Origin: Candidatus Saccharimonadota bacterium | GTDB lineage: Bacteria; Patescibacteriota; Saccharimonadia; Saccharimonadales; Saccharimonadaceae | Reading direction: 5' to 3' | Length of the DNA stretch: 32,000 bases | Assembly (NCBI GenBank): GCA_023898645.1 | Contig: CP060232.1 | Location: 360,001 to 392,000 of the forward strand | Shown here: piece by piece, positions 6,149 through 31,631 of the stretch | How positions within the stretch are numbered: the first letter of the stretch is position 1 | Layout: every line of letters starts with the position of its first letter | Position numbers and translations under genes: made by a program | The notes under the pieces: model-generated | What the model saw: only the letters and a program-made list of their open reading frames with translations | Database searches by the model: none | What the model was told of the DNA's origin: nothing

Positions 6149-7313
6149 GCAGCCGTTTAGATATACGGATGACTTTTTGGCTAATTCTAGCGGGAGTACC
6201 CTGGTCGGGCTGAGGTTTTTTTGGTTTAGCATTTTCGCTTACTATTCGCGTAAGCACTTCTTCGTAGCCGTCAATCATAGTGGTTAATGAGAAGTTTTTG
6301 ACTACATGATCTCGGCAATCTTTGCGTTTAATTGTCGGAAGTTTTTCAATCGCTAGTATCATTTCAGCGCTGTTGTTGACTATGAACCCAGTTTTTTCAT
6401 CCTTAACAACCTCTTGTACCGATCCTCGGTTGAAAGCGATTACTGGTGTGCCGCAGGCTCCCGCCTCGACCATCGCCAGGCCGAACGGTTCTTGCCATTG
6501 GATAGGCATAAGTAGTCCGCCGGAATTTTGGTAGTATTTAACCAGTTGGGCACGTTCCAGCATGCCGAGGAATAATATTTTGTTGCTCAAATATGGTTTT
6601 ACATGCTCATCAAAGTACCATTGGTCAGATTTAGAAACCGATCCAGATATCAATAGTTTGCGATCAGTCTGCATGGCTATTTGAACTGCTTCTTTGACGC
6701 CTTTGTCGGGCGTGACGCGGCCAGAAATCATCAGATAATCTTCTGGTTCACCGTCAGTTGTAAATAAATCAGTATCTATGCCGTTATATACAGTTGCGGC
6801 ATAGTTTATGTCGGGCGCGTCTCGGCGCTGACTATCGGAAATAGAGATGAAATGCTGGTTTGGCGTGCTGTGCATTTCTATGGCTTCGCGACGATCGCTG
6901 TCTATGAAGTCATGAACGATGTAGACGACGGGAACTTTAGGGAATAGGCCGGCTATCGGTAGTGCGGATTCAAAGTGGTGGAACAGTACGCAATCGAATT
7001 CCCCGCTTGCTGCTCGTTCTAAGATTTTCTTTACGAAACTTGCGTCATAAAGTGCCGGTCGGTAATCGCTAAAGAGTTCAGTCGTGCCCACAAAGTCATC
7101 AAGCTCCGCCTGATCTTTAGCTACGGAGTGCATGCCGTACGTTTCGATGGTATCAACATCAAGCTTTGTACCCTCGGGTCCAAAAAACGTCACTGTGTGG
7201 CCTCGTTGCTGTAGTCCTTCTGCAAGGGTTTGAGCAATAATTGCTGGAGAATAAGCAACGTTGCCTGGTGGGGGGGTCTCGAGAAACGCTCGGACCATCA
7301 TTGCAATTTTCAT
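6138..7313 (-). CDS. Glycosyltransferase family 4 (GT-B fold)
   Basis: N-terminus MKIAMMVRAF and a C-terminal EPFGLAMVEAGACGTPVIA motif (the E-x7-E region of GT4). Start taken at ATG 7313; the ORF-track start at 7352 adds 13 unlikely residues. The 3' end overlaps the trehalase gene by 11 nt in convergent orientation. Confidence 0.8.
   Translation of the reverse strand: MKIAMMVRAFLETPPPGNVAYSPAIIAQTLAEGLQQRGHTVTFFGPEGTKLDVDTIETYGMHSVAKDQAELDDFVGTTELFSDYRPALYDASFVKKILERAASGEFDCVLFHHFESALPIAGLFPKVPVVYIVHDFIDSDRREAIEMHSTPNQHFISISDSQRRDAPDINYAATVYNGIDTDLFTTDGEPEDYLMISGRVTPDKGVKEAVQIAMQTDRKLLISGSVSKSDQWYFDEHVKPYLSNKILFLGMLERAQLVKYYQNSGGLLMPIQWQEPFGLAMVEAGACGTPVIAFNRGSVQEVVKDEKTGFIVNNSAEMILAIEKLPTIKRKDCRDHVVKNFSLTTMIDGYEEVLTRIVSENAKPKKPQPDQGTPARISQKVIRISKRLLNS
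7270..7276 (-). repeat. C7 (coding strand) homopolymer about 12 codons into the GT4 gene
   Basis: The plus strand reads GGGGGGG at 7270-7276, encoding T-P-P-P. It is currently in frame. Confidence 0.9.
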
Positions 7314-7386
7314 AAATTGTGATGCATCTCTGCAATATATTGAGTATAACACGAATAAAGGATATTGTAAATTTTACACCCTTTTT

Positions 7387-8517
7387 CTAGCTGAGGATTT
7401 GTAGTGCTTTTACTGCCAGTATGAACTTCGCGTGCGACCAAGCAAGAGGCAGAACCCCCTTACCTTGTCGCTCATCGTCAGGGTAAATTTGCTCCGGCAA
7501 TATGTTTTCGGGCAGTAGACCGCGTTGATATTCGCGATCAAGTCGTTCGATTGTGTCATGAAACATATCTCGCGCTTCGTCAGGTGCGCCTATTGCGTCG
7601 AGGGCAATTGATTGCCAGAAGGTTAGCAGGGGCCAGGCGCCGGCGGTTGATTCACGAGATCCTTCGCGGACGATGCCGTCGTATGTATCGCCTCGGTAGC
7701 GATAAACACCAAGGCCAGGTCGATAGAGTTCATCGCTGATGGCAGTAATTGTGGATGTTGTTCTGAGACCATTTTTTTCAAATGGGTAGGCAAGGCTAGA
7801 TAAGCTGGCGTCAAGTGTATTGTCTGAATTGAAATGCGCTGAGTTTTGATAAATTTTCCTTAAGAAAAATCGCGTATCTACAGAATCGATGACACCTTGC
7901 ATTTCGGTTTGAGCTTGCTGCCAACTGCTTGTGTCGAGGTGTTCGAAGCGCTTGATTGCTCGTCCGAGGCCGTGAGCTACCGAGGCGATAGTGTAGGTAA
8001 ATACGTCATTGTCGCGCTGGGTCGTTTCGCGGTTTTCCCATAAGTCTTGAGTTGGTCCAAAGCTTTGCCCGTTCCATTTGCCAACTAGTCCATTAGCCAT
8101 TTTATTGATGGCAGTGTCGACTTTTTCATTTGCTTCCGGTACAACCACGTCAAGAGCCCCCATGAGAGACCCTGCTTGATCTGGTTGGTGTTGTTCGCCG
8201 TAACGCACGTCCAGAGCGCCGTTTGTTCCGTAGCGTTTGATATATAGACCCGTTCGAGCGAAGCCCTGGACGTTATTTAGCCAGCCCGCGTAGTTAATGG
8301 CTCGCTCTGCTGCTTTGTCGGGGTTGATCGCATGTGCGGCTAGTAATTGATATGCTGCGTCACGCGCCCAGGAAAATCGATAGTTTTCAGCTGTCGATGG
8401 ATAAATCGGCAGGTCTGAGTTGGCTGCCACCAGTGCGCCATTCGGCAAGGCGCATGCATCAAGCTGGTTCTCACTCTGCGTATACAGCTGCTCTATACGT
8501 CCTTTCAAACTCTTCAT
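7387..8517 (-). CDS. Glycoside hydrolase family 15 catalytic-domain-only protein (glucoamylase/trehalase-like)
   Basis: Motifs FSWARDAAYQLLA, DLWENR and LPLAWSHAKFI are typical of the GH15 (alpha/alpha)6 domain. At 376 aa it has no N-terminal beta-sandwich domain. Confidence 0.75.
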   Translation of the reverse strand: MKSLKGRIEQLYTQSENQLDACALPNGALVAANSDLPIYPSTAENYRFSWARDAAYQLLAAHAINPDKAAERAINYAGWLNNVQGFARTGLYIKRYGTNGALDVRYGEQHQPDQAGSLMGALDVVVPEANEKVDTAINKMANGLVGKWNGQSFGPTQDLWENRETTQRDNDVFTYTIASVAHGLGRAIKRFEHLDTSSWQQAQTEMQGVIDSVDTRFFLRKIYQNSAHFNSDNTLDASLSSLAYPFEKNGLRTTSTITAISDELYRPGLGVYRYRGDTYDGIVREGSRESTAGAWPLLTFWQSIALDAIGAPDEARDMFHDTIERLDREYQRGLLPENILPEQIYPDDERQGKGVLPLAWSHAKFILAVKALQILS

Positions 8518-18851: not shown

Positions 18852-18927
18852 GCGGGTGTAGCTCAGTTGTTAGAGCGCTTCCTTGCCAAGGAAGAGGTCG
18901 AGAGTTAGAGTCTCTTCACCCGCACCA
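18852..18927 (+). tRNA. tRNA-Gly(GCC), CCA encoded, with noncanonical D loop and T loop
   Basis: Acceptor GCGGGTG/CACCCGC and anticodon loop TTGCCAA (GCC). The D loop is AGTTGTTA and the T loop is TTAGAGT, where AGTTGGTA and TTCGAGT would be usual. Confidence 0.85.
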
Positions 18928-20526
18928 TTTTAGACTTAGAGCCTCTTCGGAGGCTTTTTGTATCTGTTGAGGCAAGGTTCTAACCATTTCTAGCTCGGTA
19001 CGTATGCTTTTAGCGTTCTTAGCCACCGGAATTAGCCACTTATTTGCCTCTATCTCCAGTACACCGTTATTCAATACAGGATTTTGTCCGATTGCCAGCA
19101 ACACCTCTCTTTTAATGGCAATGTCACCATCCCTAAACTTGTCGCTAGCATAGGTTAGCTTATCGAATGTTTGCTCGACTATCTCGTACCAATTCTTTAT
19201 GCGGTGACTGACATCTGCCTGTTCTTCTTGTAGGCGTACCAGGTCGGTCTTAAGAGCGGCGCTTTTGGTTTTATACTCTTCATCGTCAATTAGCGCTCTA
19301 GTTGCCATGTCTAGCAGCTTATCTAGCTGTGACTGAGTACTAGCAATGGCTTTATTCTGCGCATCCTGTACACCGTTGCGCTCATCAATTTCTTTACTGG
19401 CGAATTCGCGTAGGGCATCCATAGTCCACTCGTACATCTTTGGATGCAATTCGTAGCTATCCATTAACTCAAGTAGCATTGCCCATAACTTTTCTTCGCG
19501 CACGTTGATAGACTTTTGCGTACAATCTTTGTTTTTGCCGGTACAATGATAATAAATATACTCGTGACGGTTACCATTTTTCTGTATCTTTATTTTGTGT
19601 TCCGCAGTAATACTTAGGCCGCAGGCGGCGCATCGTATAAATCCTCTTAATGCAAACTGCTTGGTTGATGCTAAACGCGGGAAGCCTTTGTCGCCTAGTA
19701 GCACCTGCACCCTGTCATACTCCTCTTGTGTAATCATTGCGGGGAAATCTGCATCATAAAACTTTTCGGGGGCATATGGGTCGGGCACAAGTCCGGCATA
19801 CCGCACATTGCGCAGTATGTTATACAAGCTGCTACGTGATATGGTGCGGTTGCCTTTGCGTCGGGTGTTTGGCGTTTGGTAGCCCCATTCCTCATTCATA
19901 ATCTTACGAATAGACTGCACGCTATATTCACCGGTCAAGAATAAATCGAACGCCTTGCGGATAAGGTCAAATCGCTCGGGGTCTTTTACGACTATGGCTT
20001 GGCCTCTGCCGCCACCCGAAACCTTGATACGCTCATTTAGGTAACCGGCCGGAGCTATGCCGGTCAGCCCACCCTGCTGCCGTTTCGTGGCATTGCCGCG
20101 TTTTACATCCTTGCTTAGCTTGGCGGAGAAGTATTGTGACTGACTCATGGTCATTTGTAGCATCATCATGCTCTCTGGAGTGTTATCAAAACTAAAGCCA
20201 GAGGCAAACCTGAGGTCTTTAATCTTACCTTGCCGTATGCGCCATGTTATTGAACTTGCATCTACTTCATTGCGGCTCAGTCGGTCAGGGTGCCACGCAA
20301 TAATTCCATCAATTTTGCCCGCATCCACCATAGCGAGCAGCTCTTTGAACAGTGGACGCTTATCCGGCTCGAAAGCACTTTTACTCTCCGGTTCAATCCA
20401 GGCAACAATATTAAGGTCACCGAAACGCTCTTTAATTTTGTCCCGCTGGCTATCCAGTGAAAGTACTTGTCGCTCGGCTTCCTCGGTTGATTTACGCGTG
20501 TATACCGCATATCGTAGATTTTCCAT
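18916..20526 (-). CDS. Large serine recombinase (resolvase domain, recombinase domain, Zn ribbon and coiled coil)
   Basis: N-terminus YAVYTRKSTEE with the catalytic Ser in an R-x-S-T context, followed by IIAWHPDRLSR. Cys cluster CAACG...YYHCTGKNKDC and a C-terminal coiled coil. AAGGAGA RBS precedes ATG 20526. The last 12 nt overlap tRNA-Gly. Confidence 0.85.
   Translation of the reverse strand: MENLRYAVYTRKSTEEAERQVLSLDSQRDKIKERFGDLNIVAWIEPESKSAFEPDKRPLFKELLAMVDAGKIDGIIAWHPDRLSRNEVDASSITWRIRQGKIKDLRFASGFSFDNTPESMMMLQMTMSQSQYFSAKLSKDVKRGNATKRQQGGLTGIAPAGYLNERIKVSGGGRGQAIVVKDPERFDLIRKAFDLFLTGEYSVQSIRKIMNEEWGYQTPNTRRKGNRTISRSSLYNILRNVRYAGLVPDPYAPEKFYDADFPAMITQEEYDRVQVLLGDKGFPRLASTKQFALRGFIRCAACGLSITAEHKIKIQKNGNRHEYIYYHCTGKNKDCTQKSINVREEKLWAMLLELMDSYELHPKMYEWTMDALREFASKEIDERNGVQDAQNKAIASTQSQLDKLLDMATRALIDDEEYKTKSAALKTDLVRLQEEQADVSHRIKNWYEIVEQTFDKLTYASDKFRDGDIAIKREVLLAIGQNPVLNNGVLEIEANKWLIPVAKNAKSIRTELEMVRTLPQQIQKASEEALSLKWCG
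18941..18960 (+). terminator. Rho-independent terminator after tRNA-Gly
   Basis: GCCTC-TTCG-GAGGC followed by TTTTTG. It lies inside the antisense 3' end of the recombinase ORF. Confidence 0.7.
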
Positions 20527-20696: not shown

Positions 20697-22139
20697 TTAC
20701 CATTTGCCGCCCAGATTTATGCGTGTTCCACCCACACCACCATCCCCTATATTGTCTGTAATAAGGTTGTTTTGTTCGTCCAAGAACACCTTAATATAGA
20801 TATGCATACTACGTTTGTCACCGATTTCGGGCTGTTTCTGAACGATAAAGCCACTATTTTCTAGCAATGGCAGTATCTGCTTACGCAAACGCTCATCGTC
20901 CATCAGAGCATTTTCGGTGCGCAAATAGTAGTTACTCAAGTCCTGGCGACTTAGACCGATAAAACCTCTGTCCATATTAGCCTGCTCGCGCCGGTGCTTA
21001 TCGTTCCATGCTGGCAATATGTATTTCTTGTAGAAGTGCAGAACGGCCGGAGGCACGTTGAGGTTTTGGCTCGTTGCGATAGCGCCCCATAGTCTAAAAG
21101 CCTGGTCTATGTCTGACTGACTGGCGACAATCATTCCGTCGGGCTGTTTGCGAAACCATACGTTTAGCAGTGCGATTGCTTTAATTAGCTCCATCAGGTG
21201 TCGGATATCGCGTGCATGACGCGGCTTTAGCCTCGGAAAAGAATTCCTGAAACGCCTCTCGATGGCTTCCTTGCTAGGCACTACAATGCTATCAACGTGC
21301 TCAAAGCGTATAGCAATAATACGCTGCATCAGTTCTGCGCGCGCGGGCTGTTCGTCTAGCCACTGCTTAAATGCCTTGCGGTCAGCGCCGCGCTGCACCT
21401 CCAAGTGAACCGCGCTGCTTAACTTAGCTTCGGTAACTTCTGGGCTAAGCAGTAAAAACCGTGTAGCTTCTTGCTCATCTAGTAGCATATTTGCCGAACA
21501 AAAAACTGTTGCCGGAAAGCCACGCAGTATGATGTGCTCGGTGCGGTTGGCGCCCTTGTTCTTATTGGTCATTTTGTAATGCAAGTCACGGTCATCTTTG
21601 GATAGCAGCGCCCGTAGCTTCTCTTGTAGTAGCGGGTTGGGCTGTTCATATAGGAGTAAAATCTTGCGCTCAAGCGACACAACTTTAGCGCCACGCTCAA
21701 CATCGTCCACGCCGCGACTATAGAAGAATGAAGTCGGTGACGCCCCGCTCAGCGGTACTTTATCTACTTCGGGGAATAGCTTGGCAATTTCACTCGTTAG
21801 ATAAGTTTTGCCGGAGCTGCTTTGAGCATTAAAACTGATGTTAATTTGGTCTTCCGAAGTGTAAGCGCTCAGCATACCCAAAAAGCCAATAGCTTTATTC
21901 TCGTTATCGTCTTTGATGGTAAGTGATAACACTTCCATCACATCATCAACCGTCATCTCGCTAAATTGCGCAACATCTATGGCGGCGTTAATCTCGGCAA
22001 GTTCTGCCTCTAGCTCACGCTCCCGCGCTATTACTGGGTCTTCTTTTTGCTCTACTTTTTTGGATTTTAGCTGTTCGTATTTTGGCACCGGTGCCGGTGC
22101 ATTCGCGATTTCACTCACTGGTTTTAATCTCCTCGTCAT
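20697..22139 (-). CDS. P-loop NTPase, probable SF3-helicase-like replication initiator of the island
   Basis: Walker A NAQSSSGKTY, Walker-B-like KILLLYEQ, and an FCSAN block resembling SF3 motif C. The N-terminus is charged and coiled, and the C-terminus looks like a winged helix. The family is inferred from motifs only. Confidence 0.55.
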   Translation of the reverse strand: MTRRLKPVSEIANAPAPVPKYEQLKSKKVEQKEDPVIARERELEAELAEINAAIDVAQFSEMTVDDVMEVLSLTIKDDNENKAIGFLGMLSAYTSEDQINISFNAQSSSGKTYLTSEIAKLFPEVDKVPLSGASPTSFFYSRGVDDVERGAKVVSLERKILLLYEQPNPLLQEKLRALLSKDDRDLHYKMTNKNKGANRTEHIILRGFPATVFCSANMLLDEQEATRFLLLSPEVTEAKLSSAVHLEVQRGADRKAFKQWLDEQPARAELMQRIIAIRFEHVDSIVVPSKEAIERRFRNSFPRLKPRHARDIRHLMELIKAIALLNVWFRKQPDGMIVASQSDIDQAFRLWGAIATSQNLNVPPAVLHFYKKYILPAWNDKHRREQANMDRGFIGLSRQDLSNYYLRTENALMDDERLRKQILPLLENSGFIVQKQPEIGDKRSMHIYIKVFLDEQNNLITDNIGDGGVGGTRINLGGKW

Positions 22140-22290
22140 TACTTAATTGCTGTTGAATATGAGCCTTAGCAAGTACGAACCGCATAATTGACAGGCCAGC
22201 CTCTTGAGCTTGTTCGTCGGTGACATCTAGCCCATGTAGCTCAAGCAGGAGTGCCCGCAATTCTTGTATCCGTTCATTACTAAGGCGCAT
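22111..22290 (-). CDS. Small hypothetical protein (59 aa), below the ORF-track cutoff
   Basis: My hand translation gives MRLSNERIQELRALLLELHGLDVTDEQAQEAGLSIMRFVLAKAHIQQQLSNDEEIKTSE. Its end overlaps the start of the P-loop gene by 29 nt, which suggests translational coupling. No clear RBS. Confidence 0.4.
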   Translation of the reverse strand: MRLSNERIQELRALLLELHGLDVTDEQAQEAGLSIMRFVLAKAHIQQQLSNDEEIKTSE

Positions 22291-22298
22291 TTTTAGGC

Positions 22299-22493
22299 CT
22301 ATTTATTCGGTAGCAGATTACTAGTCCGCTTTAGCATTTCTAGGTTTTTGTAGTATGTGCGTGCTCGCACAGTAAGAGTGTTTTGTTGGTACCTTTTGAC
22401 ACACCTCGTCATGCGCTCGGTACTTCCGAATAGAAAATATGCCCGCCCATTACTGTGCTGTATTTCATGTAACCGGATGCGATGATTTAACAA
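22299..22493 (-). CDS. Small protein resembling the DUF5659 family (phage and candidate-phyla-associated)
   Basis: The DIGLAAALLNHRIRLHEI...GRAYFLF...TLTVRARTYYKNLEMLK pattern matches my recollection of DUF5659. The frame is open upstream to 22577, and AAGGAGG (22556-22550) sits 8 nt before a CTG at 22541. The true start is therefore uncertain: TTG 22493 or further upstream. Confidence 0.5.
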   Translation of the reverse strand: MLNHRIRLHEIQHSNGRAYFLFGSTERMTRCVKRYQQNTLTVRARTYYKNLEMLKRTSNLLPNK

Positions 22494-22562
22494 CGCCGCA
22501 GCCAGCCCTATATCATTAACTTTTCTAATTTTGGTAGCCAGTTTATTGCCCTCCTTGATGGG

Positions 22563-22596
22563 TGTAAAAATACCCGCTTAGTTTGTGCGGGTATTT
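22563..22596 (-). terminator. Rho-independent terminator after the 283-aa gene
   Basis: On the minus strand, AAATACCCGC-(9 nt)-GCGGGTATTT is followed by TT, so that with the stem's terminal TTT the T-run reads TTTTT. Confidence 0.7.
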
Positions 22597-22624
22597 GTAT
22601 CACTAGGGGCAATCTGAAAACTTT

Positions 22625-23476
22625 TCAGACGGATTTCAGATAGGATTTGTCTATGTAGTATTTAACCTCGTCATAAATTATCAGCTTTGGCACGCCAGTC
22701 ACCTCATTTATCTTGCGATTTATTTCATTCAGATGATTTTTTGCCAGCTTACGCTGTCGGGCATCGAATTTATCCGCCCTAACAGATGTAATTGAACGCA
22801 GCAGCACACCATCGCGCAGGGTATTGACAGATTTGAAGAGCTTACGCATTGCACCACCCTGAGTAGGCTCTTTGGCTGCTTTACCACGTCTATTTTTTTG
22901 CCCAATAATCACTATCTCGCACCCGCCAAAGTACAGTGTGCCCGTATCCGCATCATAGCTTCGTATAGTAATTGAATGCGGCTCAGCGCCTAGCTCTATG
23001 ACTGGCGGTGCTGCCGCAACAATGTCGGTCGCGGCGGTGGGGGTCACGCTTTCATCGTGCCTAGCTAGCTGTTCTTTGAGCTTCTCGTCGGTTGCGACAA
23101 ATTCCGCATATGGTATCTTCCTCACAGTGCTCACTCCAGCGGCAATTTCCTGCTTCTCATAATGCACGCTCACTAATTCGACAGCGTGCTCCACTAGCGC
23201 CATGCTAAGTATCACCTCAAAGAACTTCGGAACGCCATCAATTTCGCCCCTCACCGCTTGGTGATAGCCGAAGCCATCTGCGTACAGTTGTTTCATGACT
23301 GCCACTAGACGGTCACGTTGAACTTCGTAACTAGGCACAGCCTCTGGCGTGCCCGTAGTTAATCTGCCCTGCACGAACGCATTAAGATATTCCGCCAATT
23401 CCTTGTCGGTTGTTTTGCTAGCTATCGCGCGCTGCGTCGCCGCAAATACATCATCAATATTTCGGTATGTTTGCAT
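22625..23476 (-). CDS. Hypothetical protein (283 aa); the C-terminal region may be a winged-helix DNA-binding domain
   Basis: Clean ORF with its own terminator. The C-terminal 90 aa (LYFGGCEIVI...RKLAKNHLNEINRKINEVTGVPKLI...YYID) loosely resembles an OmpR/PhoB-type effector domain. I recognise no motifs in the N-terminal half. Confidence 0.55.
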   Translation of the reverse strand: MQTYRNIDDVFAATQRAIASKTTDKELAEYLNAFVQGRLTTGTPEAVPSYEVQRDRLVAVMKQLYADGFGYHQAVRGEIDGVPKFFEVILSMALVEHAVELVSVHYEKQEIAAGVSTVRKIPYAEFVATDEKLKEQLARHDESVTPTAATDIVAAAPPVIELGAEPHSITIRSYDADTGTLYFGGCEIVIIGQKNRRGKAAKEPTQGGAMRKLFKSVNTLRDGVLLRSITSVRADKFDARQRKLAKNHLNEINRKINEVTGVPKLIIYDEVKYYIDKSYLKSV

Positions 23477-23544
23477 TTAGCTCCTGTGTCCACACCCAAT
23501 CCCTATATTTTCTGCTAACCGATGTGCAACGGCAAGCACAAGAG

Positions 23545-23592
23545 GTTACATAACCATAGACACTATGCATGTAACAGGGGTGGTGTTATAAT
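23545..23592 (+). promoter_or_regulatory. Promoter of the R-M operon leader with a flanking inverted repeat
   Basis: Extended -10 TGtTATAAT (23584-23592). Inverted repeat GTTACAT (23545-23551) with ATGTAAC (23569-23575) spans the -35 zone and may be an operator. Confidence 0.45.
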
Positions 23593-23598
23593 TAGCGA

Positions 23599-23730
23599 GT
23601 CTTACTATCAAAACAAGTCAGAACGCATTTCATTGCGGTTCGCCACGAAAAGCGGCACCGCATAAGCATTTTGGCGAAAGCTGACTTGTGAATGGTAGTA
23701 AGACACCTTGCGGTGTCGCTTTTTATTTTC
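23599..23730 (+). ncRNA. Structured leader or small RNA of about 130 nt ending in an intrinsic terminator, upstream of the R-M operon
   Basis: P1: 23599-23607 pairs with 23696-23704 (9 bp). P2: 23614-23621 pairs with 23681-23688 (8 bp). Inner helix TTCGCC/GGCGAA (23639-44 with 23673-78), or alternatively TGCGGT/ACCGCA. Terminator GACACC-TTGC-GGTGTC (23702-23717) followed by GCTTTTTATTTT. Confidence 0.5.
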
Positions 23731-23756
23731 GCCGCAATTTACGGAAAGGAGCAGGA

Positions 23757-24089
23757 ATGACAACCTGTTACATAATGGACTGCGGCAGAAAGTTTGACGA
23801 CGGCGACAAGCATCTTGAGCATGACGTCTGGCAAGTGGGCTACTATAACGAAGGTCGCTGGTACTGTTCGCAAAAGCACCTCAAACAAGCCACCAGGCGC
23901 AACGGCTGGCTAATGTTTTTCATGGCAATTTGCGCAATGGTCGGTTTATTTTTCTTGCAATTCCTTATTTATCCGTTCCTTGACAAACATTACTTCGAGC
24001 TAGCTAGTAATACATGGGCATTCTATGCGGCACTGGCCATATGCCCGCTGAGTGCTTGGGTTTTCTACAAACTAGAAAAGTTTGGTTAA
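23757..24089 (+). CDS. Membrane-anchored Zn-ribbon-like protein (111 aa)
   Basis: ATG 23757 follows GGAAAGGAG. The N-terminus has CYIMDC...(30 aa)...YCSQKH (C-x4-C plus C-x3-H) followed by 2-3 TM helices. The GTG 23688 start in the ORF track lies inside the leader structure and is unlikely. Confidence 0.6.
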   Translation: MTTCYIMDCGRKFDDGDKHLEHDVWQVGYYNEGRWYCSQKHLKQATRRNGWLMFFMAICAMVGLFFLQFLIYPFLDKHYFELASNTWAFYAALAICPLSAWVFYKLEKFG

Positions 24090-24203
24090 GTTGACGGCTA
24101 TTATCGGTGGTGAATTACTTGAAAAACCTGTTACAATAGGTTCTGTAATCTTTACAATAAAAAAACAAAAACGGGTTGGGTAAAAAATAGCCAACCAACC
24201 ATT

Positions 24204-25787
24204 ATGAATGATACGAAAAAAGAACAAGAGCGCGCTAAATTGCACGCAACCATATGGAAAATTGCCAACGACTTACGAGGCAGTGTAGATGGCTGGGACT
24301 TCAAGCAGTATGTGCTGGGCATGTTGCTATATCGTTTTATTTCCGAAAACTTGACCAACTACATCAATGTACAAGAGCTACGTGACCCGAGTAATCCTCG
24401 CGACTTTAATTACGCATCACTAAGTGACGACTTCGCAGAACGCGGCCGCACAGAAACTGTTAAAGACAAGGGCTTTTTCATACTACCTAGTGAACTTTTC
24501 GAGAACGTCCGCAAGCGCGCAAAGACCGACGACAATCTCAACGAAACTCTGTCTGGCATTTTCCGTAACATAGAAAATTCCGCCAAGGGTGCTGATAGCG
24601 AAGACGACATAAAGGGTTTGTTTGATGACATTGACGTCAATAGCAACAAACTCGGCTCATCTGTAGACAGGCGCAATAAGCAGCTCATTCGTTTACTGGA
24701 TGCAGTTGGCGATTTGCAGTTAGGCAGCTACAAAGATAATACAATCGATGCCTTTGGCGACGCGTATGAGTTCCTAATGGGGATGTACGCTAGTAATGCC
24801 GGTAAGTCCGGCGGTGAATACTACACGCCCCAGGAGGTTAGTGAGTTACTGGCGCGTATCACTGTTGTTGGCAAAAAAGAGGTTAATAAAGTCTACGACC
24901 CCGCTGTGGGTTCCGGCTCATTGCTTCTTCAGTTTGCGAAGATACTGGGCAAAGATAATGTCCGCAAAGGTTTCTACGGCCAAGAGATTAACCTAACCAC
25001 CTACAACCTATGTCGTATTAACATGATTTTGCACGACATCAACTATACCGAATTCAACATCGCGCACGGCGACACCCTTGTAGAACCAAGCGAGGAACAT
25101 TGGCAGGAAGAGCCGTTCGAGGCAATTGTATCTAATCCGCCATATTCAATTCACTGGGCAGGTGACAGCGACCCACTACTTATTAACGACCCACGCTTTA
25201 GTCCAGCGGGCGTCCTAGCACCAAAGAGCAAGGCAGACCTCGCATTTACTATGCATATGCTTAAATGGCTAGCGACTACTGGCACGGCAGCTATCGTTGA
25301 ATTTCCTGGTGTTCTCTACCGAGGTGGTGCAGAAGCTAAAATTCGTAAATACCTCATAGATAACAACTTTGTTGATGCTGTCATACAGCTTCCTCCTGAC
25401 TTATTCTTTGGAACTGGCATAGCTACCTGCATTCTAGTACTCAAAAAGAGCAAGCACGACAATGCTACGCTTTTCATTGACGCTAGCGCCGAATTTGTGC
25501 GAGGTGGTAACAAGAATAAGCTCAATGAAGCCAATCGCAATAAAATTCTGGAAGCATACACCAATCGCGTTGATGTAGACCACTTTGCAAAGCTTGTGAA
25601 AAATGGCGATATTGCCACGAACGATTACAATATTGCGGTCAGTAGTTATGTTGAACGAGAAGATACACGAGAAATTGTGAATATCGCTGAACTCAACAAT
25701 GACATAAGCCAGATTGTCGCCAGGCAAAGCAAGCTACGCGCAGAGATTGATGCGATTGTGTCAGACATTGAGGGTGGTCATGAGTAA
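24204..25787 (+). CDS. hsdM: Type I restriction-modification methyltransferase subunit HsdM
   Basis: The N-terminal HsdM domain begins LHATIWKIANDLRG. AdoMet motif VYDPAVGSGSLL and catalytic motif IV NPPY (SNPPYS). 527 aa. Confidence 0.9.
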   Translation: MNDTKKEQERAKLHATIWKIANDLRGSVDGWDFKQYVLGMLLYRFISENLTNYINVQELRDPSNPRDFNYASLSDDFAERGRTETVKDKGFFILPSELFENVRKRAKTDDNLNETLSGIFRNIENSAKGADSEDDIKGLFDDIDVNSNKLGSSVDRRNKQLIRLLDAVGDLQLGSYKDNTIDAFGDAYEFLMGMYASNAGKSGGEYYTPQEVSELLARITVVGKKEVNKVYDPAVGSGSLLLQFAKILGKDNVRKGFYGQEINLTTYNLCRINMILHDINYTEFNIAHGDTLVEPSEEHWQEEPFEAIVSNPPYSIHWAGDSDPLLINDPRFSPAGVLAPKSKADLAFTMHMLKWLATTGTAAIVEFPGVLYRGGAEAKIRKYLIDNNFVDAVIQLPPDLFFGTGIATCILVLKKSKHDNATLFIDASAEFVRGGNKNKLNEANRNKILEAYTNRVDVDHFAKLVKNGDIATNDYNIAVSSYVEREDTREIVNIAELNNDISQIVARQSKLRAEIDAIVSDIEGGHE

Positions 25788-26424
25788 GATTGACGACCTC
25801 ATTAAGCAGTTTTGTCCTGACGGTGTGGACTTTATGGAACTAGGTGAGCTACTTGACTATGAACAGCCTGGCAGATACATAGTCAGTAGCACAAATTATA
25901 GTGATGAGCATTCCACGCCGGTTCTTACAGCTGGTCAGAGTTTTATACTGGGTTACACCAACGAAGAGCACGGTATTTACATGGCCAGTTCGGAAAATCC
26001 TGTGATTATATTTGATGATTTTACTACCTCATTCCACTGGGTAGATTTTAACTTCAAGGTGAAATCATCGGCAATGAAAATGCTACGCCTAAAACCTGAC
26101 AATCCTATTGATTTTCGTTTTGCATACTACGCAATGCGATGCATAAACTATAGCCCCACCGACCATGCGCGTCATTGGATTTCTCAATACTCAAAGTTTA
26201 CGATACCTGCACCTCCTCGCGAAGTGCAGCAAGAAATAGTGAAAACACTGGACAAGTTCACACAATTAGAAGCGGAGCTAGAAGCGGAGCTAGAAGCGGA
26301 GCTAGAAGCGGAGCTAGAAGCGAGAAAGAAGCAATACCAATACTATCGCAATCAACTTTTGACATTTGATTCATCGGGGGGGGGCGAAGTGGAAGACCCT
26401 TGGCGAGGTGGCGATGTACTCTAA
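25780..26424 (+). CDS. hsdS: HsdS specificity subunit, N-terminal half (TRD1 plus central conserved helix); frame ends after the G8 tract
   Basis: ATG 25780 overlaps the hsdM stop (ATGAGTAA). TRD1 is followed by LDKFTQ(LEAE)n...RKKQYQYYRNQLLTF. The frame then passes through G8 (26376-26383) and stops at 26422-26424. Confidence 0.85.
   Translation: MSKIDDLIKQFCPDGVDFMELGELLDYEQPGRYIVSSTNYSDEHSTPVLTAGQSFILGYTNEEHGIYMASSENPVIIFDDFTTSFHWVDFNFKVKSSAMKMLRLKPDNPIDFRFAYYAMRCINYSPTDHARHWISQYSKFTIPAPPREVQQEIVKTLDKFTQLEAELEAELEAELEAELEARKKQYQYYRNQLLTFDSSGGGEVEDPWRGGDVL
26266..26321 (+). repeat. 12-bp tandem repeat (AGAAGCGGAGCT) x4.6 inside hsdS
   Basis: Four perfect units at 26267-26314 plus a 7-nt partial unit. 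Together they encode LEAELEAELEAELEAELEA in the central helix. Confidence 0.95.
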
Positions 26425-26956
26425 AGCTAGAATTGAAGCCGAACACCTCAACGATGATAATTACGTTGGGGTTGATAACATTTTGCAAAACCGACAAGGT
26501 AAAACCGCGTCCAGCCATGTACCTAGCTCTGGAAATCTTACACGATTTGATAGAGGTGATGTACTTCTTGGAAACATTCGACCATACTTGAAAAAGATAT
26601 GGCACGCTGACAAAACTGGCGGTACAAACGGTGATGTTTTGGTAATAAAGTTGACAGATGATAGCGTCACGCCAAGATACCTGTACCAAGTTCTATCAGA
26701 TGACAGATTTTTCGACTCCGAAATGAAGTATGCAAAAGGCGCAAAGATGCCACGTGGCGACAAGAATTCGATTATGAAATATCCTGTACCCGTGCCGTCA
26801 ATTCCAAAGCAAAATCATATAGTTTCAGTTTTAGATAAATTTGACGCTTTAGTGCATGATATCACTGAGGGCTTGCCTGCCGAGATAACCGCGCGAAGAA
26901 AACAGTATGAGCATTATCGTAACAAGCTACTGTCATTTACGGAGCTACCTGCATGA
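26366..26956 (+). CDS. hsdS: HsdS C-terminal half (TRD2 plus distal conserved helix), in the +1 frame relative to the N-terminal half
   Basis: KWKTLGEVAMYSKARIE is a typical TRD start, and the sequence ends ARRKQYEHYRNKLLSF. The stop overlaps the hsdR ATG (ATGA). Only weak internal starts are available (TTG 26366, ATG 26414). Confidence 0.8.
   Translation: MIHRGGAKWKTLGEVAMYSKARIEAEHLNDDNYVGVDNILQNRQGKTASSHVPSSGNLTRFDRGDVLLGNIRPYLKKIWHADKTGGTNGDVLVIKLTDDSVTPRYLYQVLSDDRFFDSEMKYAKGAKMPRGDKNSIMKYPVPVPSIPKQNHIVSVLDKFDALVHDITEGLPAEITARRKQYEHYRNKLLSFTELPA
26376..26383 (+). repeat. G8 homopolymer at the TRD1/TRD2 junction of hsdS
   Basis: tcatcGGGGGGGGcgaag, counted directly from the sequence. Confidence 0.95.
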
Positions 26957-29900
26957 ACAAGTACAGCATGGTGGCGGAAAACCCGCATAGTACAGTTGTT
27001 GCCGAGTTTATACCCGCCGCGCGCCGCGCTAGCGATTATCAAAGTGAAGCTGAGCTAGAGCAGGCATTGATTGAACAGCTGCAAAGGCAAGCATACGAGT
27101 ACCTGCGTATCTCCAGCGAAACCGACCTCATTACTAATCTGCGCGCTCAATTAGAAAAACTCAACGATTACCAATTTACCGACACTGAGTGGGAACAGTT
27201 CTTCAAGCAAAACCTCGCCAATCCTAGCGAAAGCATAGAGGAAAAGACTACTACTATTCAGGAAGACCATGTTAAAAACCTAACGCGCGACGATGGTACG
27301 GTTAAAAATATTAGATTGCTCGACAAGGTAAGCATCCACAATAACAGCCTGCAAGTCATCAATCAGTACGAAATTGAGGGCGCACGAGCAAATCGTTACG
27401 ATGTGACAGTATTAGTTAATGGACTACCTCTAGTTCATATAGAACTAAAACGGCGTGGCGTGGACATCAAAGAGGCGTTTAACCAAATAAACCGTTACCA
27501 GCGCGATAGCTTCTGGGCAGGTAGTGGGCTATTCGAGTACGTGCAGTTATTTGTCATTAGCAACGGAACGTACACAAAGTATTACAGCAACACCACTCGT
27601 AACCAGCACGTTAAAGACGGTGGCAATATCAATAAAAAAGGCAAAAAGACCAGCAACAGCTATGAGTTTACAAGTTGGTGGGCAGACGCTCGCAACAAGC
27701 CAATTACTGATTTGACCGATTTTGTTGCAACGTTTTTTGCAAAACATTCACTACTGAATGTGATTACTAAATACTGCGTATTTACAAGCGACCGTTTACT
27801 GCTGGCGATGCGGCCATACCAGATTGTAGCAACCGAGCGTATTCTTAACCGCGTAGAGGTTAGTACTAACTATAAAAAGTTAGGCACCATAGAGGCGGGT
27901 GGCTACGTTTGGCACACCACCGGTTCAGGTAAAACGCTGACCAGTTTCAAGACCGCTCAGCTAGCAAGCAAGCTAGAAGACGTAGAAAAAGTACTATTCG
28001 TGGTAGACCGCAAAGACTTGGACTACCAGACAATGAAAGAGTACGACAAGTTCGAAAAAGGCGCCGCGAACAGCAACACAAGCACCGCGAAACTCAAAAA
28101 ACAGTTGGAAGACCCGAACGCTCGCATCATTATCACGACTATCCAAAAGCTAGATAAGTTCATCAAAAAGAATGAGGGGCACCGCATTTTTGACGGACAC
28201 ATCGTTTTAATTTTTGACGAATGTCACCGCAGTCAGTTTGGCGATATGCATCACTCCATTACCAAGAGCTTCAAGAATTACCACCTTTTTGGTTTTACGG
28301 GCACTCCTATTTTTCCGCAGAATATATCAAGTGGTGGACGCGCCGACCTTAAGACCACCGAGCAAGCCTTTGGCGAAAAGTTGCACACATACACCATTGT
28401 TGACGCCATTACCGATAAGAACGTTTTGCCATTCCGCATTGACTACATCAGTACTGTACGTGAAGCAGAAGATATAGACGACGAACAGGTGCGTAGCATT
28501 GATACTGAGGCAATCTTAGGAGCGCCGGAACGCATTAGCAAGGTCGTGCAATATATTCGCGACCACTTCGACCAGAAGACTAAGCGGAACAGCACCTACA
28601 TGTTTACCGGTGCGCTGCAAAACATTCACGAGGTTGCCACCGCGCGCGACAGGCACGCCATCGAAGAAATAAAGCAGCGTATTCGACTTAGCGGCTTTAA
28701 CTCTATTTTCGCTGTCAGTTCTATAGAAACGGCAAAAAAGTACTACGCCGAATTCAAGCGCCAGCAAGCAGAGGCTCCAGAGGCGTTACGGCTCAAAGTG
28801 GCTATTATTTATAGCTACGGCGCCAACGAAGACGAAGAACTTTTTGACGGGCTAGAAGACGAGAACAGTGAGGGTACCGAGGGGCTAGATAGTAGTTCAC
28901 GCGACTTTCTTGATAACGCAATTCGCGATTACAACCAGATGTTTGCAACTAGCTATGATACATCAGCCGACAACTTCCAGAATTATTACAAGGACGTGTC
29001 GCTACGTATGAAAAACCGCGAAATCGACCTGCTTATTGTGGTTAACATGTTCCTTACTGGCTTTGATGCAACGACCCTCAATACGCTGTGGGTGGACAAA
29101 AAGTTGCGGTCACACGGTTTGCTGCAAGCATATTCTCGCACCAATCGTATCCTAAACTCAGTTAAAACTTTTGGTAATATCGTGAGTTTCCGTAACCTTG
29201 AAAAAGCCACCAATGACGCCTTGGCATTGTTTGGTGACAAAGAAGCCGGTGGCATTGTGCTGCTCAAGAGCTATAACGATTACTACAATGGCTACGACGA
29301 CAACGGTAAACATCAGCGCGGATACGTGGAGCTGGTTACCGAGCTAATGGAGCGGTTCCCTGTAGGTCAACAAATCATTGGTGAGCAGGCTCAGAAAGAG
29401 TTTATTAAGCTATACGGGGGCATCCTGCGCGTGCGTAACATCCTGAGTACGTTCGACGATTTTGAGGGCAATGAAATTCTTTCTGCCCGTGATGTTCAAG
29501 ACTACCACAGTATGTATATCAATTTGTATAACGAGTTCCGCAAGGGTACCGATGCCGACAAAGAAAACGTCAATGACGATGTTGTGTTTGAGATGGAGCT
29601 GATTAAGCAGGTAGAAATAAACATTGATTATATCCTTGAACTGATACGCAAGTACCACGCCGGAAACCAAGAAGACAAAGAACTACTCGTTGACATCAAT
29701 AAGGCTGTTGATAGTAGCGTTGAGCTACGCAACAAGAAAGACTTGATAGAACAATTCATTACCTCACTCAACGTCAATTCATCGGTAGATGAAGACTGGC
29801 GTAAATTCGTCGATACTAAAAAGGTAGAAGAACTTAACCGCATTATCCAGGAAGAGGGATTAGACCACGATGAAACCTATCGCTTTGTAGACAATGCATT

Positions 29901-30072
29901 CCGCGATGGCTCGCTGCAATCCACCGGCACGGCAATTGCTAAAATTCTGCCGCCCGTATCACGCTTTTCAGCAGATAACTCACGCGGCAAAAAGCGCGAA
30001 ACGGTGCTCGACAAGCTGACCAACTTCTTTAATAAATTCTTTGATATATCTAGCGGCAAAATGGAGGACTAG
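26953..30072 (+). CDS. hsdR: Type I restriction enzyme R subunit HsdR (type IC-like, 1039 aa)
   Basis: N-terminal nuclease region (VLVNGLPLVHIELKRRG), SF2 helicase motifs (HTTGSGKT, DECHRSQ, FTGTP) and a C-terminal helical domain. The length matches EcoR124I-type HsdR. Confidence 0.9.
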   Translation: MNKYSMVAENPHSTVVAEFIPAARRASDYQSEAELEQALIEQLQRQAYEYLRISSETDLITNLRAQLEKLNDYQFTDTEWEQFFKQNLANPSESIEEKTTTIQEDHVKNLTRDDGTVKNIRLLDKVSIHNNSLQVINQYEIEGARANRYDVTVLVNGLPLVHIELKRRGVDIKEAFNQINRYQRDSFWAGSGLFEYVQLFVISNGTYTKYYSNTTRNQHVKDGGNINKKGKKTSNSYEFTSWWADARNKPITDLTDFVATFFAKHSLLNVITKYCVFTSDRLLLAMRPYQIVATERILNRVEVSTNYKKLGTIEAGGYVWHTTGSGKTLTSFKTAQLASKLEDVEKVLFVVDRKDLDYQTMKEYDKFEKGAANSNTSTAKLKKQLEDPNARIIITTIQKLDKFIKKNEGHRIFDGHIVLIFDECHRSQFGDMHHSITKSFKNYHLFGFTGTPIFPQNISSGGRADLKTTEQAFGEKLHTYTIVDAITDKNVLPFRIDYISTVREAEDIDDEQVRSIDTEAILGAPERISKVVQYIRDHFDQKTKRNSTYMFTGALQNIHEVATARDRHAIEEIKQRIRLSGFNSIFAVSSIETAKKYYAEFKRQQAEAPEALRLKVAIIYSYGANEDEELFDGLEDENSEGTEGLDSSSRDFLDNAIRDYNQMFATSYDTSADNFQNYYKDVSLRMKNREIDLLIVVNMFLTGFDATTLNTLWVDKKLRSHGLLQAYSRTNRILNSVKTFGNIVSFRNLEKATNDALALFGDKEAGGIVLLKSYNDYYNGYDDNGKHQRGYVELVTELMERFPVGQQIIGEQAQKEFIKLYGGILRVRNILSTFDDFEGNEILSARDVQDYHSMYINLYNEFRKGTDADKENVNDDVVFEMELIKQVEINIDYILELIRKYHAGNQEDKELLVDINKAVDSSVELRNKKDLIEQFITSLNVNSSVDEDWRKFVDTKKVEELNRIIQEEGLDHDETYRFVDNAFRDGSLQSTGTAIAKILPPVSRFSADNSRGKKRETVLDKLTNFFNKFFDISSGKMED

Positions 30073-30077
30073 CAAAT

Positions 30078-30680
30078 ATGTCAAAAGGAATAATCTACTT
30101 AATGTCCACCGCCGTATCTGGCCTGGTGAAGATTGGCAAAACTGGCACGGTCAATTATCCAGAACGAATGCGCTTCCTGGAGGCTAATGGATACTACAAC
30201 GTTGCGGGCTTACGACGCTATTTCGCTATCGAGCTTGAAGATTATGACGATAAAGAAAGTCTACTGCACGAAATTTTTAGCAAACACCAAGTTGGTACCA
30301 GCGAGCTTTTTGCGTTAGACCAAGACCTAGTACGTCAATTGTTGCTATCATTTGATGGTAAAGTTATCTATCCTGAAAAAATCAACAAGGAAAAAGAGTT
30401 CGACGAAGTGGCGACCGCCCGCAAGCAAGGTGCGTTATTCAGCTTTTACCGTAAAGGTTTGCAAGACGGTGACGAAATCAACTTTATATCTGATAAATCT
30501 ATTATCGCAACCGTCAGCGGAGAGCGAGAAGTTGAGTACGGCGGTCAAGTATGGAAGTTGTCACCACTAACATACAAGATTTTCGAGGATAAGGGGCAGC
30601 TAAACAGTAGCGGCGCCTATCAGGGTGCAAACTATTGGCAATTCAATAATCACAAACTAAAAGATTTGCCTGATAAGTAG
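30078..30680 (+). CDS. GIY-YIG-like T5orf172 domain protein with a DUF4357-like C-terminal domain
   Basis: The N-terminus GIIYLMS...GLVKIGKT...ERMRFL...ELF fits the T5orf172 pattern. The C-terminus EINF...ATV...EVEYGGQVWKLSPL...YWQFNNHKLKDL fits DUF4357. It starts 5 nt after the hsdR stop, with GGAGGA upstream. Confidence 0.7.
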   Translation: MSKGIIYLMSTAVSGLVKIGKTGTVNYPERMRFLEANGYYNVAGLRRYFAIELEDYDDKESLLHEIFSKHQVGTSELFALDQDLVRQLLLSFDGKVIYPEKINKEKEFDEVATARKQGALFSFYRKGLQDGDEINFISDKSIIATVSGEREVEYGGQVWKLSPLTYKIFEDKGQLNSSGAYQGANYWQFNNHKLKDLPDK

Positions 30681-30888
30681 TCGGTTCTAACCTATATTTC
30701 AAATTTTCCGAAAAATTTTTGGCAACGACATATCGACACATGTGGTGAGGGTGTCACTGCCTACCCCCCCGCCCCTTGTCAACTATGTAGGCAACGGTGG
30801 TGGGAGTGCGCGAACCGCCACGCCGGAGGCCAGTTACCTCTGTTCAGTCTATTGATGTAATCTGTTTTAAGCTATAGAATAAGTGAGT

Positions 30889-30957
30889 AGCGCGGTTCTG
30901 ACTTCTGCCAGAACGGTGCACCAATTAAAATATCGAGGCTTGCCCTCGGTTTTTTAA
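30889..30957 (+). terminator. Two-hairpin 3' element ending in a rho-independent terminator
   Basis: First hairpin: GCGCGGTTCTG-(8 nt)-CAGAACGGTGC (30889-30918; 11-bp stem with 1 mismatch and 1 G-U pair). Second: CGAGG-CTTGC-CCTCG (30934-30948) followed by GTTTTTT. Confidence 0.6.
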
Positions 30958-31049
30958 TTGGTTTGTGTCTATGTGTTCTAACTCTCGACCTCGACCCGAA
31001 AACTATAGTCGAGCATTTTGGGCTTATGCACTTACAAATATACGAATGT

Positions 31050-31078
31050 TTGCATTTTTGCGAATGGTTGTGTATACT
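31050..31078 (+). promoter_or_regulatory. Sigma70-type promoter of the ArsR-like gene (leaderless geometry)
   Basis: TTGCAT (31050-31055), 17-nt spacer, TATACT (31073-31078) preceded by TGtg. ATG 31086 starts 7 nt after the -10 hexamer. Confidence 0.55.
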
Positions 31079-31085
31079 CAAAAAT

Positions 31086-31631
31086 ATGAAAATGACAGAC
31101 TTGCTACTTCACCCCGTACGAATCCGTATCCTCCAAGCTTTTTTAGGGGAGCGTGAGCTAACGACTGCTCAGCTTGCGGCAGAAATGGGTGATATTCCTC
31201 CGGGCAGGATTTATCGACATGTAACTTTGCTAGCCGATGCGGGAGTTTTGGAAGTTAAGTCCGAACGGCGAGTGCGTGGCGCAGTTGAGCGTTCATATGG
31301 CTTGGGGATCAAGACCAAACCTGATGTAGCAGAAATAAAAAAAATGACCCGTGATGAACATCTGCAGGCTTTTACGGCATATGTAACCGGACTGCTAGCA
31401 AGTTATGAACGGTATCTTGATAGTGACAAGCCGGATCTGGTACGTGATGGCGTTGGTTATTCTATGAATGCATTGTGGCTGAGTGATGACGAGTATGCTG
31501 ATTTCGTAAAAGATATCGCAGCCGTCGTAACGAAACGGACAAAAAATAAACCAACAGCAGAGCGAAAGCGTCGCCTGATAGCGAGCGCATTTATGCCACT
31601 GCTTAACAACAAGGAGGGATCGAATGACTGA
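31086..31631 (+). CDS. ArsR-family-like winged-helix transcriptional regulator
   Basis: MKMTDLLLHPVRIRILQAFLGERELTTAQLAAEMGDIPPGRIYRHVTLLADAGVL is a typical HTH_20/ArsR N-terminus. The ORF-track start at 30963 lies upstream of the promoter and is unlikely. Confidence 0.7.
   Translation: MKMTDLLLHPVRIRILQAFLGERELTTAQLAAEMGDIPPGRIYRHVTLLADAGVLEVKSERRVRGAVERSYGLGIKTKPDVAEIKKMTRDEHLQAFTAYVTGLLASYERYLDSDKPDLVRDGVGYSMNALWLSDDEYADFVKDIAAVVTKRTKNKPTAERKRRLIASAFMPLLNNKEGSND

Follow-up and report, generated by a model that had tools for sequence, protein, structure and literature searches.

The stretch of DNA analysed here (32,000 nucleotides (nt), referred to as the window; positions 360,001 to 392,000 of contig CP060232.1, assembly GCA_023898645.1, from a Candidatus Saccharimonadota bacterium of the Patescibacteria) carries a restriction-modification (R-M) operon in which the specificity gene, hsdS, is split by an uninterrupted run of nine guanines. 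The operon has the order hsdM-hsdS-hsdR, all on the + strand and with overlapping stops and starts (24204-25787, 25780-26956, and 26953-30072, respectively). The hsdM gene (24204-25787, +) encodes a type I N6-methyladenine (m6A) methyltransferase subunit of 527 amino acids (aa; USN96917.1), with Pfam matches to N6_Mtase (E = 1e-111) and HsdM_N (E = 8e-19) and with NPPY and DPAVGSGS motifs in its translation, and it shares its last 8 nt with the start of hsdS. The hsdR gene (26953-30072, +) encodes an intact type IC restriction/translocase subunit of 1039 aa (USN96918.1) that matches EcoR124_C (E = 8.6e-70), T1R_D3-like, SWI2_SNF2, HSDR_N, and ResIII. Since the hsdM-hsdS-hsdR gene order is accompanied by an EcoR124_C domain in HsdR, the operon can be assigned, from its sequence, to the type IC R-M systems of the EcoR124I family. 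The accessions of HsdM and HsdR are consecutive, with none between them for hsdS, and hsdS is therefore presumably annotated as a pseudogene at NCBI.

The homopolymer is located at positions 26376-26384 (+), between the two target-recognition domains (TRDs) encoded by hsdS, and is the only homopolymer of at least nine nucleotides in the window. By chance, such runs are expected at 0.02 per window, and they were present in 1 of 100 dinucleotide-preserving shuffles. Starting from ATG 25780, translation of the G9 state stops 38 nt past the tract (TAA 26422-26424), yielding a 214-aa product (25780-26424, +) that consists of the N-terminal conserved region, TRD1, the complete central conserved helix, and a 12-residue out-of-frame tail (i.e., EVEDPWRGGDVL). 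The central dimerisation helix is kept whole in this product, through YYRNQLLTF, and one TRD is retained. The remainder of the gene (26385-26956, +), read in another frame as GGAKWKTLGEV and onwards, encodes an intact TRD2 and distal conserved helix, without an internal stop or a second frameshift. This TRD2 frame is open from TTG 26366 (196 aa), contains an internal ATG at 26414 (giving 180 aa), and ends in a TGA (26954-26956) that overlaps the hsdR ATG at 26953 as ATGA.

In silico reconstruction showed that the two halves are fused into a single HsdS by a tract of either G8 (391 aa) or G11 (392 aa), while G7 and G10 yield products of 269 and 270 aa, respectively, with out-of-frame tails. A change of one repeat unit hence switches between a full-length hsdS open reading frame (ORF) and a truncation that ends just past the tract. 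Pfam Methylase_S matches both halves (E = 1.7e-10 for the 5′ half and E = 1.8e-9 for the 3′ half), and the central (ARKKQYQYYRNQLLTF) and distal (ARRKQYEHYRNKLLSF) helices agree at 11 of 16 positions. When the in silico fused HsdS was aligned with the EcoR124 HsdS structure (7BST), residues 13-213 paired with residues 13-212 of 7BST (195 bits), TRD1 was 54% identical to the EcoR124 TRD1, and the tract fell at the junction between the central helix and TRD2 (i.e., 'SFK-EGEVEWKTLGE'). The original prediction on this DNA had correctly described the 214-aa frame with TRD1 and the central helix, the other frame with its ATGA overlap, and the position of an uninterrupted G run exactly at the TRD junction. 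Its tract was one nucleotide too short (G8 at 26376-26383), so that the relative rule it gave (minus one or plus two nucleotides fuses the halves) holds, but the absolute lengths of G7 and G10 do not.

The locus was retrieved from public contigs of six samples (SRR7638747, SRR14234121, SRR28385528, SRR28385526, SRR12358676, and ERZ27248697), and these contigs had zero mismatches to the window, save for one collapsed 12-bp repeat in one of them (L001). Five of the assemblies (SRR7638747, SRR14234121, SRR28385528, SRR12358676, and ERZ27248697; four from Logan and one ENA megahit assembly) span the tract, and all five have G9. Because these five independent assemblies agree, it is very unlikely that G9 is a homopolymer assembly error.

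The tract was subsequently compared with those of diverged relatives. The closest homologue (P0001, from locus L008) is a 384-aa protein with 79% amino acid identity, and its hsdS-hsdR DNA is 78% identical to that of the window. At the site homologous to the G9 of the window, L008 carries a G8 that is in frame, as does L015 (with an hsdS product of 406 aa), and a third relative (L014) has an interrupted G3AG4 tract (TCG GGA GGG GCG, within TCGGGAGGGGCG). Three lineages with 74-80% DNA identity, i.e., with flanks that have diverged by 20-26%, have kept a GGG-GGG pair at this site. GGG is nevertheless the rarest or second-rarest glycine codon in the hsd genes of the window and its relatives, with a share of 6.6% among the glycine codons of the hsd genes of the window, 7.5% among those of its core genes, and 4-6% among those of the relatives. 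Codon drift does not predict such a persistence of GGG-GGG. As an example of a locked hsdS tract sequence, GGAGGTGG can be given.

Moreover, branch-specific codon changes were counted in TRD2 and the distal helix, with 30 synonymous and 7 non-synonymous changes for the window, 24 and 7 for L008, and 20 and 2 for L015. The corresponding figures for TRD1 of the window are 31 synonymous and 7 non-synonymous changes. TRD2 of the window hence shows purifying selection on its own branch, on a par with TRD1 and with the in-frame relatives, and from the 30:7 ratio it follows that the TRD2 frame has been translated during the greater part of the separate history of this lineage. The frameshift is accordingly recent or reversible rather than an old lesion, and the comparative evidence favours a maintained slippage tract.

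The same relatives also display shuffling of TRDs. The hsdS of L015 (5495-6715) has the TRD2 type of the window with an unrelated TRD1, and that of L014 (624-1811) has the TRD1 type of the window with an unrelated TRD2; the conserved N-terminus and the central and distal helices are retained in both. In L008, an extra ORF of 151 aa (7546-8001; no Pfam match) is situated between hsdM and hsdS, and the window has no such ORF.

The precedents to which the original prediction had appealed, i.e., the EcoDXXI and EcoR124I truncations and the poly-G switch of NgoAV, are borne out by the literature (PMC3874165, PMC9577141). The gonococcal NgoAV system is the closest parallel. It is likewise type IC (with gene order hsdM-hsdS1-hsdS2-hsdR), its poly-G tract directly follows the central helix (FDNQI-GGG in NgoAV versus FDSS-GG in the window), one G fewer fuses the halves in both systems, and the truncated products measure 208 and 214 aa, respectively. 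Gonococcal strains carry 6, 7, 8, or 9 G's, and the 208-aa half directs recognition of GCAN8TGC and the fused form that of GCAN7STCA, with the switch altering gene expression (PMC9577141). A Neisseria gonorrhoeae ngoAV locus (L005, from a chromosome mislabelled in a plasmid collection) provided a 70% nucleotide match to TRD2 of the window, and has a G9 directly past the central helix (FDNQI-GGG-IADG) and a 407-aa product, i.e., this strain is in the fused state. Rebuilding L005 with G7 gave 208 aa, which equals the published length of NgoAV HsdS1, and rebuilding it with G6 gave 406 aa. As had been anticipated, the gonococcal tract is found at the equivalent position, and the tract of the window thus shares its structural junction, to within one codon, with the one experimentally validated example.

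At the protein level, the TRD2s of the window and of Neisseria share 65% identity, and the fused homologues from Neisseria reach 57-58% identity to the in silico fusion as a whole. In contrast, the gonococcal TRD1 is of another type, the Neisseria linker has a 13-aa insert with a DNA uptake sequence (L005 4896-4935), and the central helix has three repeats versus four in the window. Furthermore, switching, both specificities, and a regulon have been demonstrated experimentally for NgoAV, in a human pathogen, whereas the switch described here is a candidate in a Patescibacteria metagenome-assembled genome (MAG). The tract of the window and that of NgoAV could share ancestry or could have originated independently, and the variety of repeat types found at this junction (see below) argues that independent origin is easy.

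The truncated product also resembles those of EcoR124I-delta50 and of EcoDXXI-deltaC/deltaN in comprising TRD1 and the complete central helix. EcoR124I-delta50 recognises GAA N7 TTC and EcoDXXI-deltaC recognises TCA N8 TGA, and co-expressed EcoDXXI halves regenerate wild-type activity and specificity (PMC3874165). These truncations, however, are irreversible laboratory deletions or a Tn5 insertion, while that of the window occurs at a natural slippage tract. Prediction of the half-site from TRD similarity was rejected as unsafe, with TRD1 being only 54-56% identical to the TRD1s of EcoR124 and N. polysaccharea.

Taken together, the best explanation is that the G tract constitutes a candidate slipped-strand specificity switch of a type IC hsdS, to which we assign a probability of roughly 0.6. 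This reading is strengthened by the G8 relatives, the selection on TRD2, the avoidance of GGG elsewhere, and the NgoAV tract at the same junction. In the G9 state, 214-aa half-subunits would pair via their central helices, by analogy with NgoAV, EcoR124I-delta50, and EcoDXXI-deltaC, and such a half-dimer together with two HsdM subunits would methylate a symmetric interrupted palindrome, with TRD1 reading each half-site, a spacer one base longer than that of the full form, and HsdR restricting at these sites. Loss of one G (to G8) or gain of two (to G11) by slipped-strand mispairing at replication would then fuse TRD2 back, and the resulting 391- or 392-aa subunit would direct the complex to an asymmetric bipartite target. 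Two methylation specificities from two tract states are thus conceivable on the model of the same three systems, and a useful slippage rate in this host, activity of both forms, and the spacer lengths are likewise inferred. In the split state, hsdR could in addition be translated more weakly, via its ATGA overlap with the TRD2 frame.

In a REBASE survey that the original prediction did not take into account, Atack et al. (2019) found a slippage-prone repeat in 7.8% of hsdS genes, always between the two TRDs, with nine as the length criterion for mononucleotide tracts (PMC7383803), and the G9 of the window, being inside hsdS and between the TRDs, has that length. For nine-base mononucleotide tracts, measured phase-variation rates range from about 2e-3 to 1.4e-2 (cited in PMC7383803). 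The surveyed examples (Salmonella G12, Mannheimia G[n], Mycoplasma AG[n], and H. parasuis GCAA[n]) likewise have the repeat between the TRDs and right past the coiled coil, and the survey predicts the same switch between full and half-sized HsdS as proposed here for the window. Its main text names no Patescibacteria or candidate phyla, and the hsdS of the window adds a second perfect array, of 12 bp.

Several observations nevertheless weigh against a switch. No tract-length polymorphism was seen in the lineage of the window, since all five consensus assemblies have G9, although consensus assemblies cannot reveal minority tract lengths, and the public copies all match the window exactly and hence represent one clone, which is silent on stability over time. 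When the products of G7, G8, and G10 tracts, each with 2 or 4 helix repeats, were looked up by exact sequence, nothing was found, and a search of 5.8 billion protein clusters with the in silico fusion yielded a best fused homologue of only 79% identity. The G8 relatives could merely show the ancestral in-frame state, with G9 as a one-off mutation. Finally, 47% of gonococcal ngoAV loci were judged inactive (PMC9577141), so that a tract is no guarantee of function. Two DNA-pattern scans of metagenome contigs for the tract flanks gave no match, though the JGI contig L015 fits both patterns and is thus evidently absent from the collection scanned.

The alternative that survives best is a fixed truncation, i.e., a one-off +1 event in an ancestral G8 after which a working half-HsdS homodimer was retained, with negligible reversion and with TRD2 as a young relic. 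It would account for the uniform G9 and the absence of variants on record, type IC systems are known to work with half-subunits (PMC3874165), and natural half-HsdS proteins with this TRD1 type are common publicly (P0211, P0222, P0231, P0240-P0243, P0246, and P0251). Searching with the 214-aa half indeed revealed that natural half-sized HsdS proteins are plentiful, with tails such as NEMGGVNG, NEVSGGGGIKS, NERERERE, and ENVGGGRSRVEENE. A relic, however, sits poorly with a TRD2 that has neither a stop nor a further frameshift and that retains the 30:7 ratio on its own branch, and a fixed state sits poorly with a tract that stays uninterrupted despite the strong avoidance of GGG codons and that has a length at which published tracts phase-vary. 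We therefore regard a fixed truncation as unlikely, while granting it some weight.

A second alternative, which the original prediction had not considered and which is a variant of the slipped-strand switch and does not exclude it, holds that the gene is split but complete. Both halves would be made at G9, with TRD2 translated from ATG 26414 or TTG 26366, giving a mix of TRD1/TRD1, TRD2/TRD2, and TRD1/TRD2 complexes in which the tract shifts stoichiometry and the target mix. A putative internal start (26405-26416, +) consists of GAGGT, a 4-nt gap, and ATG 26414, and its context resembles that of the start of hsdS itself (gagggtggtcATG versus gaggtggcgATG). The HsdS1 stop follows 8 nt downstream of this ATG, with the frames overlapping by 11 nt, and because of this proximity translational coupling is possible. 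The window, L008, and L015, in which the TRD2 DNA is 74-80% identical, share an invariant 23-nt segment (GGCGAGGTGGCGATGTACTCTAA), the Met is kept in the clade even with other TRD2 types (L014, L058, and P0224), and the 180-aa product is called by gene callers on public contigs. The recovery of wild-type activity by co-expressed EcoDXXI halves (PMC3874165) would provide a functional precedent. In contrast, GAGGT is largely forced by conserved Gly-Glu-Val codons, the product from the ATG lacks the first TRD2 strand (AKWKTLGEVA), TTG 26366 has no upstream Shine-Dalgarno sequence, and the NgoAV hsdS2 product was reported to be inactive (PMC9577141). Overall, production of both halves seems rather improbable.

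That the frameshift simply inactivated hsdS, with loss of DNA recognition, would agree with the pseudogene call implied by the NCBI accession series and with the proportion of inactive gonococcal loci. HsdM and HsdR are, however, full length with all their domains, the extent of the 214-aa product equals that of active truncations (the 208-aa NgoAV half, EcoR124I-delta50, and EcoDXXI-deltaC), and both TRDs are under purifying selection, which makes a dead pseudogene highly improbable. An artefact (i.e., a true G8 and an intact gene, given that some platforms are prone to errors in G runs and that the 1.13-Mb source MAG contig may come from long reads) or a fused protein made from G9 by transcriptional slippage or +1 ribosomal frameshifting (given that perfect re-pairing of tRNA-Gly may be possible on a G run) is scarcely credible in view of the agreement among the five assemblies and of the lack of a frameshift stimulator, e.g., a rare or stop codon, past the run. 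A -1 ribosomal frameshift on G GGG GGG was rejected, since -1 gives the G10 frame and not the TRD2 frame.

Next to the candidate G9 switch, the same gene carries a second repeat that was absent from the original prediction. A perfect 12-bp tandem repeat (TAGAAGCGGAGC x4.7; 26267-26322, +; TRF period 12, 100% matches, score 112) lies 54 nt upstream of the G9 and contributes (LEAE)x4 to the central coiled-coil helix. The helix spacer (LDKF..QY) measures 24 aa in the window and 12, 16, or 20 aa in all measurable homologues (91 of the 120 best). The array corresponds to the TAEL repeat by which the length of the spacer is set in EcoR124I and EcoR124II, systems that share with the window the EcoR124_C domain in HsdR and a central-helix tandem repeat of 12 bp (4 aa), but that have two or three TAEL repeats without a homopolymer tract, versus four perfect LEAE repeats and a G9 in the window. 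In the EcoR124 family, two TAEL copies result in GAA N6 RTCG (EcoR124I) and three in GAA N7 RTCG (EcoR124II; PMC3874165). EcoR124I (2 helix repeats) thus has an N6 spacer in the full form and N7 in the half-dimer, and both EcoDXXI and NgoAV (3 helix repeats each) have N7 and N8, respectively. Because the published systems follow this relation between repeat number and spacer, the four LEAE repeats predict, by analogy, that the spacer would be about N8 in the fused form and N9 when two halves pair. The array is also a possible second, in-frame, and length-variable dial for the spacer.

The copy number of this array cannot be read reliably from public short-read contigs, as Logan contigs either end at the array or reduce it to 2.7 copies. 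Exact look-ups of G9 products with 3 or 5 helix repeats found nothing, the sole product present being that of 206 aa from one Logan contig. This product (2.7 copies) was rejected as repeat variation, since its 32 bp are the shortest k=31 graph path through the array and since other Logan contigs break there. One ENA megahit contig (L011, k141) begins at window position 26279, exactly one unit into the array; a mixed population with 3.7 and 4.7 copies would fit, but coincidence (1 in 12) or low coverage could also explain this start.

To place the tract in a wider context, one genome per GTDB species was scanned for the conserved HsdS N-terminus, yielding 72 loci, many of them from Candidatus Saccharibacteria. 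A simple repeat within about 30 nt past the central helix was found in 20 of the 50 loci with an identifiable junction, in the form of poly-G/C of 7-11, (GA)4-9 (all in Saccharibacteria), (AG)19, or GCAA x3. In half of the repeat-bearing loci (10/20) hsdS is split, with an ORF of about 190-260 aa, and 9 of these 10 regain an ORF of 389-430 aa when 1-2 repeat units are added or removed. This pattern agrees with that of the REBASE survey. A further case, retrieved with the 214-aa half, is the type IC locus L088 (P0251; ERR13899379), which has a G9 at 2762-2770 and, as in the window, is split at G9 (into 209 + 206 aa) and fused at G8 (into 402 aa); its half-protein belongs to a 90%-identity cluster of 211 sequences, and its central helix has four units and a 24-aa spacer with imperfect repeats. 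The Candidatus Saccharibacteria loci with (GA)4-9 directly past the helix (protein NERER...) are L020, L037, L042, L045, L048, L049, L065, L066, and L072. In these loci the (GA)n lies about 560-650 nt into hsdS, some are in frame and some split (L065 and L066), and one or two units restore 389-403 aa.

More broadly, Patescibacteria, with genomes of about 1 Mb, might routinely use TRD-junction repeats of type IC hsdS as contingency loci, such as the poly-G of the window and the (GA)n of many Saccharibacteria, with two dials (spacer length and half versus full subunit) and four or more specificities within a population of episymbionts in the present case, a proposal that we put forward only tentatively. 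No description of repeat-driven hsdS switching in Patescibacteria was found in the searchable literature. If the tract slips, a single gene would provide a population of ultra-small bacteria with at least two restriction and methylation specificities, and hence with a hedge against phage and foreign DNA; a genome-wide change in methylation is then possible as well, as in the gonococcal NgoAV phasevarion. Since this mechanism is well known from pathogens and has been catalogued in REBASE, the gain is mainly one of host range, which would extend to Patescibacteria, with extra interest stemming from the Patescibacteria host, the frequent Saccharibacteria junction repeats, and the second perfect array in the same gene. 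The latter offers, at four repeats, a natural test case for the rule that each 4-aa helix repeat adds one bp of spacer. Moreover, active defence systems in MAGs will be under-reported wherever annotation pipelines treat hsdS genes of this kind as pseudogenes.

With regard to its surroundings, the R-M operon is situated about 4 kb inside an island that starts at a tRNA-Gly(GCC) gene (18852-18927, +; ARAGORN). A large serine recombinase gene (18916-20526, -; Pfam Resolvase, Recombinase, and Zn_ribbon_recom) overlaps this tRNA gene. A 16-nt stretch of the tRNA T-arm region (18894-18909) recurs in inverted orientation at 30977-30992, just beyond the R-M operon, and may mark an element boundary, an inversion site, or chance. 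Between the recombinase gene and the operon, three island ORFs (480, 59, and 283 aa; 22111-23476 and 20697-22139, -) have no Pfam matches. The 283-aa ORF is also present upstream of the operon in L001, and all three ORFs are called in L002 and L003. A megablast search of the island against plasmids returned no match.

Directly 3′ of hsdR lies a gene of 200 aa (30078-30680, +; Pfam T5orf172, E = 4e-5), named 'GIY-YIG nuclease family protein' at NCBI. A 200-aa gene directly follows hsdR in the diverged relatives L008 (12274-12876) and L015 (9871-10473) as well, and this T5orf172/GIY-YIG-like gene may be a conserved accessory gene of the R-M module. A promoter and terminator scan of 23400-31200 was uninformative, with sites no commoner than in shuffles, with the exception of a stem-loop followed by a T run at 30932-30950, 3′ of the last gene of the operon.

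After the G9, the longest G or C runs in the window are an intergenic C7 at 30764-30770 and a G7 at 7270-7276. The latter is located inside a GT4 glycosyltransferase ORF (6138-7352, -), about 80 nt from the ORF start, and might be another slippage site.

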